Below, piece after piece: positions 48,887-50,570 of a stretch of 64,000 bases of DNA; position 1 is the stretch's first letter, and every line of letters starts with the position of its first letter. The notes under the pieces are model-generated. The model was not told the DNA's origin. It did no database searches and worked only from the letters and a program-made list of their open reading frames with translations. The position numbers and the translations under genes were made by a program. This DNA is from Escherichia coli (GTDB lineage Bacteria > Pseudomonadota > Gammaproteobacteria > Enterobacterales > Enterobacteriaceae), in assembly GCF_024502345.1 (NCBI RefSeq), contig NZ_JALDNN010000001.1. One strand, 5' to 3'.

Positions 48887-48986
48887 TTCAAGAAATTCAC
48901 CTTCTGTGTAAAAATATATTTTAAATCATGCATATACATTATCTCCTGTAGTGAATTTCATCATGTAGTCGAGACGTAACAATCCT

Positions 48987-49175
48987 TTAATTATCAATAT
49001 CATAAATTTCGCCACCACATTCAATCGCAACACTATGATATATATGGAATTCTTCAACAATTTCCTTAGATCCATAATGCCAACCTTCAAGAGGCGCTTT
49101 TGCGATTAATCCTTGTTTTATACGTGTTTGGTTACCAGTTGAAAACTGCGCTATCAACTCCGGATACTGACTCAC
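48987..49175 (-). pseudogene. Orphan C-terminal fragment of colicin-E-type HNH DNase domain (cassette 3)
   Basis: Begins at the junction LWLEVSQ(Y)PELIAQFS shared with the full-length toxin; no ATG (GTG only); in-frame TAA replaces the Leu codon after ..YDIDN, with the remaining LHDEIHYRR codons intact downstream. Confidence 0.6.
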
Positions 49176-49287
49176 CTCCAGCCAAAGGGTATCGGTGAAA
49201 GCGGGAAATTGATAAAATAACCTAATGAGATTTCAGTATTTTACCTGTTTTTTAAGAGCACCCACATTATTATTTTATGTTATTAAC

Positions 49288-49314
49288 ATCATCGCATTAG
49301 CCAGACGCGATGAT
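49288..49314 (-). terminator. Conserved hairpin downstream of immunity gene 3
   Basis: ATCATCGCAT-TAGCCAG-ACGCGATGAT (one stem mismatch). Confidence 0.45.
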
Positions 49315-49341
49315 GTTCCATATATAGTTTTATTATCTACT

Positions 49342-49632
49342 TTATTTAGAGTCTTTAAACAAGGGTAGCCCCTGTGAACGCCGCCATTCTTTGACAATTT
49401 TCAGGATGTTTTCAGGTTCATCATCTCCCTTCTTTGCAGGATAGTAGATAAGATCGCTCATCAACGGATGTTGTGTAATTCTGGTAAGATGTTCTTCTAG
49501 ATCATCCCAATATTTGTCAAGCTCTTCCCCTTTTAATTGAGCGTTATCCCCGGTTGGATTTGTAAACTCGCCAAGCAACTCAATGAATTCCCGCTCTGTG
49601 TAATCTTCTATTTTATCTTTAAAATTATACAT
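49342..49632 (-). CDS. Colicin-E-type DNase immunity protein homolog (orphan cassette 2)
   Basis: 96 aa: DYTEREFIELLGEF, ITQHP, DLIYYP, VKEWRRSQG, paralleling Im9 (DYTEAEF.., TEHPSGSDLIYYP, VKQWR); Shine-Dalgarno AGGAGA in the upstream fragment's 3' end. Confidence 0.8.
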   Translation of the reverse strand: MYNFKDKIEDYTEREFIELLGEFTNPTGDNAQLKGEELDKYWDDLEEHLTRITQHPLMSDLIYYPAKKGDDEPENILKIVKEWRRSQGLPLFKDSK

Positions 49633-49872
49633 TTAACTATCTCCTGTAATAAATTTCATCATGCAAATGAGGTGTGCCCTCCTTAAATTATCAATATCGT
49701 AAATTCCGCCACTATATTCAATCGCAACACGATGATCCATGTGGAATTTTTTAACGATTTCTTTAGTGCCATAATGCCAACCTTCAAGTGGTGCTTTTGC
49801 GATTAATCCTTGTTTTATACGTGTTTGATTACCGCTTGAAAACTGCGCTATCAACTCCGGATACTGACTCAC
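49633..49872 (-). pseudogene. Orphan C-terminal fragment of colicin-E-type HNH DNase domain (cassette 2)
   Basis: Starts at the LWLEVSQ junction without ATG; homologous to toxin residues ~515-593; a 1-nt deletion after NLR puts the terminal LHDEIYYRR in another frame. Confidence 0.6.
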
Positions 49873-49985
49873 CTCCAGCCAAAGGGTATCGGTAAAAGCG
49901 GGAAAATGATAAAATAACCTAATGAGGCTTCAGTATTTTTACCTGTTTTTTAAGAGCAATCACATTATTATTTTATGTCATTAAT

Positions 49986-50012
49986 ATCATCGCATTAGCC
50001 AGATGCGATGAT
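49986..50012 (-). terminator. Conserved hairpin downstream of immunity gene 2
   Basis: ATCATCGCAT-TAGCCAG-ATGCGATGAT perfect 10-bp stem. Confidence 0.45.
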
Positions 50013-50039
50013 GTTCCATATATAGTTTTATTATCTACT

Positions 50040-50330
50040 TTATTTAGAGTCTTTAAACAAGGGTAACCCCTGTGAACGCCGCCATTCTTTGACAATTTTC
50101 AGGATGTTTTCAGGTTCATCATCTCCCTTCTTTGCAGGATAGTAGATAAGATCGCTCATCAACGGATGTTGTGTAATTCTGGTAAGATGTTCTTCTAGAT
50201 CATCCCAATATTTGTCAAGCTCTTCCCCTTTTAATTGAGCGTTATCCCCGGTTGGATTTGTAAACTCGCCAAGCAACTCAATGAATTCCCGCTCTGTGTA
50301 ATCTTCTATTTTATCTTTAAAATTATACAT
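50040..50330 (-). CDS. Colicin-E-type DNase immunity protein homolog (orphan cassette 1; identical product to cassette 2)
   Basis: 96-aa product identical to the 49342-49632 ORF; Im9-like motifs as above. Confidence 0.8.
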   Translation of the reverse strand: MYNFKDKIEDYTEREFIELLGEFTNPTGDNAQLKGEELDKYWDDLEEHLTRITQHPLMSDLIYYPAKKGDDEPENILKIVKEWRRSQGLPLFKDSK

Positions 50331-50570
50331 TTAACTATCTCCTGTAATAAATTTCATCATGCAAATGAGGTGTGCCCTCCTTAAATTATCAATATCGTAA
50401 ATTCCGCCACTATATTCAATCGCAACACGATGATCCATGTGGAATTTTTTAACGATTTCTTTAGTGCCATAATGCCAACCTTCAAGTGGTGCTTTTGCGA
50501 TTAATCCTTGTTTTATACGTGTTTGATTACCGCTTGAAAACTGCGCTATCAACTCCGGATACTGACTCAC
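50331..50570 (-). pseudogene. Orphan C-terminal fragment of colicin-E-type HNH DNase domain (cassette 1)
   Basis: Identical in translation to the 49633-49872 fragment; GTG at the junction, same 3' frameshift. Confidence 0.6.

Follow-up and report, generated by a model that had tools for sequence, protein, structure and literature searches.

Damaged toxin fragments and mostly intact immunity genes in the orphan array of an Hcp-ET3-4 locus of Escherichia coli

The effector gene and its downstream array

We analyzed a 64,000-nt stretch of an Escherichia coli chromosome (contig NZ_JALDNN010000001.1 of assembly GCF_024502345.1; the whole stretch is called the window below). It carries a gene for a type VI secretion (T6SS) DNase effector, followed by its immunity gene and by an array of truncated toxin fragments, each with an immunity gene of its own. 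These genes form a 4.6-kb minus-strand island which replaces the pdhR-aroP spacer of K-12, with aceF, aceE and pdhR on one flank and aroP on the other. The island is the known Hcp-ET3-4 locus, UTI89_C0121 of the uropathogenic E. coli (UPEC) strain UTI89. Its components are listed below, together with the evidence used to define them (ORF, open reading frame).

51025..52806, minus strand: main effector gene, 593 aa, Hcp + Pyocin_S + colicin/pyocin HNH DNase, Hcp-ET3-4 type (Pfam)
51025..51270, minus strand: C-terminal cassette (type T1a) of the main gene, exchangeable, from WLEVSQ (E9 Trp58 equivalent) to the stop codon (four-unit DNA alignment)
50738..51022, minus strand: cognate immunity gene I1, 94 aa, Im7/Im9 family (ORF list; 64% identity to I2)
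50331..50579, minus strand: orphan A toxin fragment, type O2, three lesions (translation, alignment)
50040..50330, minus strand: intact I2 immunity gene of orphan A, 96 aa, with an ATG directly adjoining the TAA of the shifted fragment ORF (ORF list, Im matches)
49633..49881, minus strand: orphan B toxin fragment, a tandem duplicate (698 bp) of A sharing its three lesions (repeat spacing 698)
49342..49632, minus strand: orphan B immunity gene I2, 96 aa, intact (ORF list)
48987..49184, minus strand: orphan C toxin fragment, type O3, Tyr at E9 His102 (49038-49040) (translation, alignment)
48939..48986, minus strand: in-frame remnant RIVTSRLHDEIHYRR and a stop codon, after the TAA of orphan C (translation)
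48650..48939, minus strand: I3 immunity gene of orphan C, disrupted in this strain and reduced to a 78-aa ORF (48650-48886) (sequence comparison)

The main gene has the Hcp-ET architecture, with an N-terminal Hcp domain, a C-terminal toxin domain and an immunity gene next to it. Pfam matches were T6SS_HCP (1.5e-12), Pyocin_S (1e-40) and Col-Pyo_DNase (PF21431, E 5.9e-42), the last being covered in full (positions 1-124 of 124). Its C-terminus aligns residue by residue with the DNases of colicins E7/E9 and pyocin AP41 (PDB matches, E 1e-21 to 1e-22), and all four HNH histidines and Asn118 are present (…FQIHH…DIDNLRIVTPRLHDEIHYRR). The same three-domain architecture was found in more than 60 homologue clusters from Escherichia, Salmonella, Citrobacter, Kluyvera and Superficieibacter, and RefSeq names the gene tssD in relatives. 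Among 5426 complete E. coli genomes, 1058 had the toxin gene, chromosomal every time; the island is thus carried by about a fifth of them, including sequence type 131 (ST131) strains, Nissle 1917, LF82 and UPEC strains. We found no T6SS structural genes within the window. According to Ma et al. 2017, as summarized in a review (PMC6730261), the main effector would be secreted by a T6SS and kill other cells.

On the immunity side, I2 matched the solved structures of ImAP41 (E 2.4e-19) and Im7 (E 1.8e-18). The Im7/Im9 family (PF01320) is assigned to the I2 cluster and its relatives, and at 90% identity this cluster has 1242 member sequences. I1 was placed in the same family because it is 64% identical to I2. 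The helix III motif D-L-I-(Y/F)-Y-P reads SDLIYYP in I2, SDLIFYP in I1 and GDPIFYP in I3. The system therefore resembles the DNase-Im pairs of colicins E7/E9 and pyocins S2/AP41 in the DNase fold family, in the immunity family with its helix III motif and in the HNH histidines, which align one to one (His102, 103, 127, 131). It differs from them in being fused to the T6SS tube protein Hcp rather than imported through a receptor, and in being chromosomal with no lysis gene.

After the main pair, a repeat of ~698 bp recurs three times. Each unit combines the 3' fragment of a toxin gene with an immunity gene and ~165 bp of spacer. The fragments are truncated at their 5' side and begin at a junction conserved with the full-length gene: in the four-unit DNA alignment, homology between the main gene and the orphans starts sharply at TGGCTGGAGGTGAGTCAG (WLEVSQ). 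The main-gene tails of different strains (T1a, T1b and T3) also diverge from WLEVSQ onward. In the main gene, the T1a cassette that begins here spans the immunity-binding exosite and the HNH motif. The displaced tails are without the first ~57 residues of the DNase domain and match only the C-terminal ~60% of PF21431 (from the E9 Trp58 equivalent), as fragments of the family and not complete members. RefSeq labels the 62-aa and 79-aa ORFs 'hypothetical protein' or 'HNH endonuclease'; toxin pseudogene fragment is the better description.

Lesions in the toxin fragments and the immunity genes

A first-pass annotation of the window had claimed that the orphan DNase fragments are damaged at their 3' ends, and translation in all frames together with alignments confirmed this. 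Orphans A and B both translate to ...YDIDNLRRAHLICMMKFITGDS followed by a stop (longer extract DIDNLRRAHLICMMKFITGDS, stop), and the -1 frame gives ...GTPHLHDEIYYRR and a stop. The 1-nt deletion which had been read after YDIDNLR was recovered in alignments to the main gene, to orphan C and to an intact full-length relative (L017), and its placement agrees across the three: the missing base follows DIDNLR at about 50377/50378 in A and 49679/49680 in B. L017 reads AGG ATA GTC ACG CCT CAT TTG where A and B read AGG A-G GGC ACA CCT CAT TTG (ATAGTC to A-GGGC). The out-of-frame remnant HLHDEIYYRR with its stop lies at 50335-50367 (A) and 49637-49669 (B). It had been thought to carry the last two HNH histidines in the other frame, which was wrong for A and B. 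Only the His127 equivalent is left in the shifted frame, the His131 equivalent being Tyr (CAT to TAT compared with L017). In addition, the position of E9 His102 is occupied by Asp in both copies (codons 50433-50435 and 49735-49737).

The exact 83-nt frameshift junction was present in 1004 of the 5426 complete E. coli genomes, so sequencing error is excluded; the deletion site also lies outside any homopolymer run, which answers the earlier concern about homopolymer errors. A and B are identical over the toxin fragment and over the immunity gene upstream of 49368, with six differences at or 3' of 49368. They are a recent, strain-specific tandem duplication, as the closest relative, FDAARGOS_943, has a single copy.

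Orphan C ends with DIDN-TAA. Translation bore out the claim that this TAA (48987-48989) stands in for the Leu codon and that the codons downstream of it (48939-48986) are still recognizable. The TAA was present in all of the O3 copies sampled (10/10). Near 48916, one of the tandem AAAATAT copies (7 nt) has been lost from the immunity gene of this orphan, and its frame is shifted. This is the sole immunity lesion in the window, where two of the three orphan immunity ORFs are full length, as had been noted (A and B, 96 aa each). I3 is intact in 9/10 sampled copies and in FDAARGOS_943; because the repeat loss is absent from the latter, it is a recent strain-specific slippage.

None of the three orphans retained the complete active site (E9 His102, His103, His127, His131 and Asn118); in A and B the reading frame is lost ahead of His127, and C stops ahead of that residue. 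HMMER alignment to the DNases of colicins E7/E9 and pyocin AP41 placed the first His of 'IHH' at E9 His102, and with the codon positions it upheld the reading of Asp or Tyr at this position in the orphans. Among ~100 DNase-bearing homologue clusters (Hcp-, VgrG-, PAAR- and pyocin-type), His-His was found at 102-103 in all but one, which has Gln; Asp or Tyr at position 102 occurred in none of these clusters and was confined to orphan fragments. Tyr102 is common to O2, O3 and the rare variants with an open frame (P0001, APEC 16-1068), and His102 to Tyr is therefore the oldest lesion. Asp102 is a later change from Tyr, limited to this lineage (3/19 O2 copies). Asp is found in active 'D-H' variants of other HNH enzymes. 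We rejected such a variant here, considering that Asp and Tyr were absent from the ~100 clusters and that Asp derives from Tyr in this lineage only. In a preprint on pyocin S8 (10.1101/2020.04.29.068437), the catalytic metal is always bound by His102 and His127, with His103 acting as general base and His131 assisting in protonation of the leaving group. A literature search for E9 H102 mutants retrieved these histidine roles alone, and no accessible mutagenesis study.

The survey of other strains covered the window and 16 complete genomes, i.e. 17 parsed loci. They contained three immunity types (I1, I2 and I3, with mutual identities of 57-64%) and the three main toxin tails T1a, T1b and T3. 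The lesions of the window were found in every other genome examined beside it. Among the orphan toxin fragments, 30/36 were damaged (19 by the frameshift, 10 by the TAA and one by another frameshift) and six were intact, whereas the orphan immunity ORFs were damaged in 2/36 cases and intact in 34. This difference has a Fisher P of about 1e-11, although the copies share ancestry. The six intact fragments were all of the T1a type with His-His at 102-103, and all were situated directly after the main pair (five after T3 and one after T1a).

The ratios of nonsynonymous to synonymous change (dN/dS) were 0.15 for I1, 0.08 for I2 and 0.14 for I3, compared with 0.73 for O2 and 0.5 for O3; these are indicative only, being based on 2-9 haplotypes per set with recombination and shared ancestry ignored. 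The O2 fragments had 15 nonsynonymous and five synonymous polymorphisms. In terms of such counts, I2 differed from O2 (P = 0.02) and the pooled immunities differed from the pooled fragments (P = 0.005).

The main toxin gene itself was broken in several strains by frameshift or insertion sequence (IS), with the immunity genes kept. Frameshifts were seen in muskdeer13-4, GPEC1186 and YP3, and insertions of ISKpn26 in SCU-172 and of IS1 in isolate 131. The array of FCI23 has a truncated distal end, beside an IS1 fragment and a TEM-1 gene. The T1b tail of ST131 strains has an immunity-binding region very unlike that of T1a (77% nucleotide identity), and the immunity differs at three residues only. 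This contrast hints that a few immunity residues may set specificity, or that I1 may be broadly protective.

Matching toxins and the origin of the array

All of the orphan immunity types were found as partners of full-length toxins elsewhere (I1, I3 and an I2-like protein). Orphan I3 shares 94% identity with the protein that is paired with the T3 toxin in LF82, Nissle 1917 and other strains. In LF82 and Nissle, the main pair is T3+I3 and an intact T1a-type orphan with I1 follows, while in the window T1a+I1 is the main pair and I3 is an orphan. Since I3 and I1 pair with the main toxins of other strains, these orphan immunities match weapons circulating within E. coli. For I2, full-length relatives were reached by way of the immunity protein; when the repaired orphan served as the query (word-based candidate step), short orphan ORFs alone were returned. 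In L017, a 594-aa Hcp-PyocinS-DNase of full length is directly followed by an immunity protein with 86% identity to I2. Its toxin ends with DIDNLRIVTPHLHDEIHYRR and shows the ancestral IVTPHLHDEIHYRR. This only live I2 partner found sits in a non-E. coli contig, apparently of a different enterobacterial genus, and at another locus. The flanks of L017 had no megablast match in E. coli, and two scans of a collection of species-representative genomes returned no match for the T2/O2 3' sequence or for a degenerate pattern of the L017 N-terminus.

In L017 (2212-8291), the live T2-type Hcp-DNase and immunity pair adjoins proP. After the pair, on the other strand, are a 72-aa ORF and genes for an ATP-binding cassette (ABC) exporter that includes a C39 peptidase domain, for an outer-membrane factor and for an HlyD-like protein, a group that looks like a microcin or bacteriocin export cluster.

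We interpret the locus as an Hcp-ET3-4 effector-immunity locus with an array of displaced orphan C-terminal cassettes, in which the dead tails decay and the immunities are kept by selection; we give this interpretation a probability of about 0.8. In this reading, a new C-terminus together with its immunity gene replaces the old one by recombination at WLEVSQ, and the old tail and immunity are pushed downstream. Each tail has gathered several independent inactivating changes, His102 to Tyr first; after that, O2 gained the 1-nt deletion and His131 to Tyr, and O3 the TAA. The tails would decay since they have no independent use. The immunity genes would remain under purifying selection because they neutralize matching DNases that other strains inject, with I1 and I3 acting on T1 and T3 of other E. 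coli and I2 on a T2-type toxin seen outside E. coli only. The first-pass annotation had proposed selection for immunity rather than for stored toxin, and this idea was supported by the damage contrast (30/36 versus 2/36), by dN/dS, by the matching toxins and by the NR1441 recombinant described below. It had also called the nuclease parts decayed or deliberately crippled. Decay is supported and deliberate crippling is not, as multiple independent hits and near-neutral dN/dS fit plain decay.

The array is a well-resolved example of a published displacement mechanism and no new mechanism. This model was published for Vibrio T6SS, rhs and cdi (PMC5361080). The orphan arrays of the Vibrio cholerae T6SS (Kirchberger et al. 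2017, PMC5361080) are alike in that a new module displaces the effector end and the old immunity is kept, and the benefit proposed there is protection from kin still carrying the old effector. Compared with V. cholerae, what is displaced here is smaller than a domain, namely a cassette from a colicin-type DNase fused to Hcp; its WLEVSQ junction is sharp, and the toxin remnants are long enough for their decay history to be read. Degraded effector remnants beside orphan immunities have been reported in other systems as well (PMC7400221). In the review cited above, three immunity 'duplications' downstream of UTI89_C0121 are all reported to neutralize the toxin (Ma et al. 2017, via PMC6730261). 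The UTI89 locus resembles the present one in its site between aroP and pdhR (B2-type strains), in its three-domain architecture and in having several Im-family genes downstream. The review speaks of duplications of the cognate immunity, whereas we found three distinct types that are 57-64% identical. A toxin 3' fragment precedes each immunity gene here, and the state of these fragments (H102Y/D, frameshift, stop) is documented.

Several observations weigh against this interpretation. Despite its I3 immunity, the O3 fragment shares only 66% identity with the true T3 tail, compared with ~90% for O2 and T1a. Because O3 resembles O2/T1a and yet sits with I3, partners have been exchanged among the fragments and immunity genes, with gene conversion from one repeat unit to another as the probable route. 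The fragments and immunities thus have partly separate histories (gene conversion or mosaic recombination), which go beyond a simple displacement model. In the exosite, the tails T1a and T2 hardly differ though their immunities do, so fragment similarity is a poor guide to cognate pairing. No live I2 partner toxin occurred in any complete E. coli genome, which leaves selection for I2 unexplained unless the threat comes from another genus. In consensus scans, promoter- and terminator-like matches in the island equaled the counts in shuffled sequence. The dN/dS estimates, with the small haplotype sets noted above, belong here too.

I2 was present in essentially every island-bearing E. coli genome that could be scored, and it has the lowest dN/dS of the three types. 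It is possible, although we regard it as tentative, that I2 is a species-wide, long-kept defence against T6SS attack from other genera, and that the array is a record of past toxins ordered by lesion load, beginning with His102 to Tyr.

Inactivation might itself have been selected, or the dead fragment might have a function. The 79-aa ORF would then serve as a leader for translational coupling or as an immunity-binding or regulatory peptide, and His102 to Tyr would have been favoured because it detoxified cassettes before or after displacement. This would account for the frameshifted ORF being exact in 1004 genomes with its TAA abutting the immunity ATG, for His102 to Tyr in every old orphan including those with an open frame, and for fragments left undeleted in about 1000 genomes. 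However, the O2 fragments have a dN/dS of 0.73 (15 nonsynonymous versus five synonymous polymorphisms), residue 102 has drifted from Tyr to Asp in this lineage, and the redundant lesions in each fragment are a signature of decay. The O3 stop lies 47 nt before its immunity gene, which makes coupling unnecessary. Other species keep 14 codons only: in another enterobacterial lineage (L020-L022, rsmI / PTS-sorbose locus), the last ~14 toxin codons, IIVTPRLHDEIHYRR with the stop, precede the orphan immunity (about 4290-4430 in L020/L021), so lineages differ in how much of the displaced toxin is left. Persistence of the tail also needs no selection on the toxin, since the end codons of the remnant, TAC AGG AGA, contain the Shine-Dalgarno sequence (AGGAGA) of the following immunity gene. 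The tail codons (…HYRR) probably persist because they overlap this predicted ribosome-binding site. We thus consider selected inactivation unlikely.

It is still less probable that the orphans are a stored arsenal, i.e. silent spare modules which can recombine into the main gene and switch the toxin type, as for orphan rhs/cdi. The architecture does resemble that of orphan rhs-CT/rhsI and cdiA-CT/cdiI (Jackson 2009; Poole 2011; Koskiniemi 2014, as cited in PMC5361080), with 5'-truncated toxin ends and immunity genes downstream of a full-length gene, with a conserved junction and with the ability to recombine into the main gene. Orphans of the T1a type remain intact in LF82, Nissle and other strains (6/36), and exchange with the main gene does happen. 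In NR1441 (L023 3500-5575), recombination joined the main gene to the terminal O2 fragment and everything between was deleted, with loss of I1 and I3. But the one natural fusion found is a full-length gene with Tyr102 and the frameshift, annotated as a pseudogene, with I2 alone after it. In the rhs/cdi systems, orphans are typically intact and activatable, whereas most here are irreversibly dead: 30/36 fragments are damaged, mostly by two or three hits, and two or three inactivating lesions were counted in both O2 and O3, leaving only the T1a-type orphans of other strains intact. For O2 and O3 the stored-arsenal explanation is largely refuted. The probability of a sequencing or assembly artefact, or of programmed ribosomal frameshifting that restores the HNH end, is negligible in our view. 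The string AGGAGG does occur at the shift site, but the junction was recovered from 1004 independent complete genomes and the deletion does not lie in a homopolymer. We rejected programmed frameshifting at AAGGAGGG, as the site has no slippery heptamer of the form X XXY YYZ, and a product with the frame restored would nonetheless be without the N-terminal half of the domain and the catalytic residues (Tyr/Asp at 102, Tyr at 131).

Under the displacement interpretation, the locus is a compact case, readable from sequence, of bacteria keeping old antidotes and not old weapons. It would also predict which pairs of strains are mutually immune or susceptible to the Hcp-DNase, which bears on probiotic-pathogen competition in the gut.

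Spacers and neighboring features

The spacer after each immunity gene contains a perfect hairpin with a 10-bp stem (CATCATCGCAT…ATGCGATGATG, coding strand), in conserved copies at the following positions.

50686..50711, strand not assigned: hairpin in the spacer after I1
49988-50013, strand not assigned: hairpin in the spacer after I2 of orphan A
49290-49315, strand not assigned: hairpin in the spacer after I2 of orphan B

No T-run follows the stem, so it is not a typical intrinsic terminator, and the fold of the whole spacer was unremarkable (z = -1.1). A weak promoter-like pair (TTTAAA, 16 nt, GATAAT) was seen on the minus strand at the 3' ends of the immunity genes (50728-50755, 50030-50057 and 49332-49359). 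It could drive the next cassette, although such matches are no commoner than in shuffled sequence.

Outside the island, two extra genes lie between aroP and ampE (54916-57272, plus strand) and form a second variable islet beside the toxin island. They are absent from the sampled relatives whose stretch reaches ampE, in which ampE directly follows aroP. One is a 316-aa ORF with no NCBIfam match, and the other encodes a symporter of the glycoside-pentoside-hexuronide family (NCBIfam TIGR00792, E 2e-127). A full-length match to the small RNA (sRNA) family tp2 (Rfam RF02030, 103.9 bits) lies between aceE and pdhR, at 47272-47385 on the plus strand, whereas these two genes are on the other strand.

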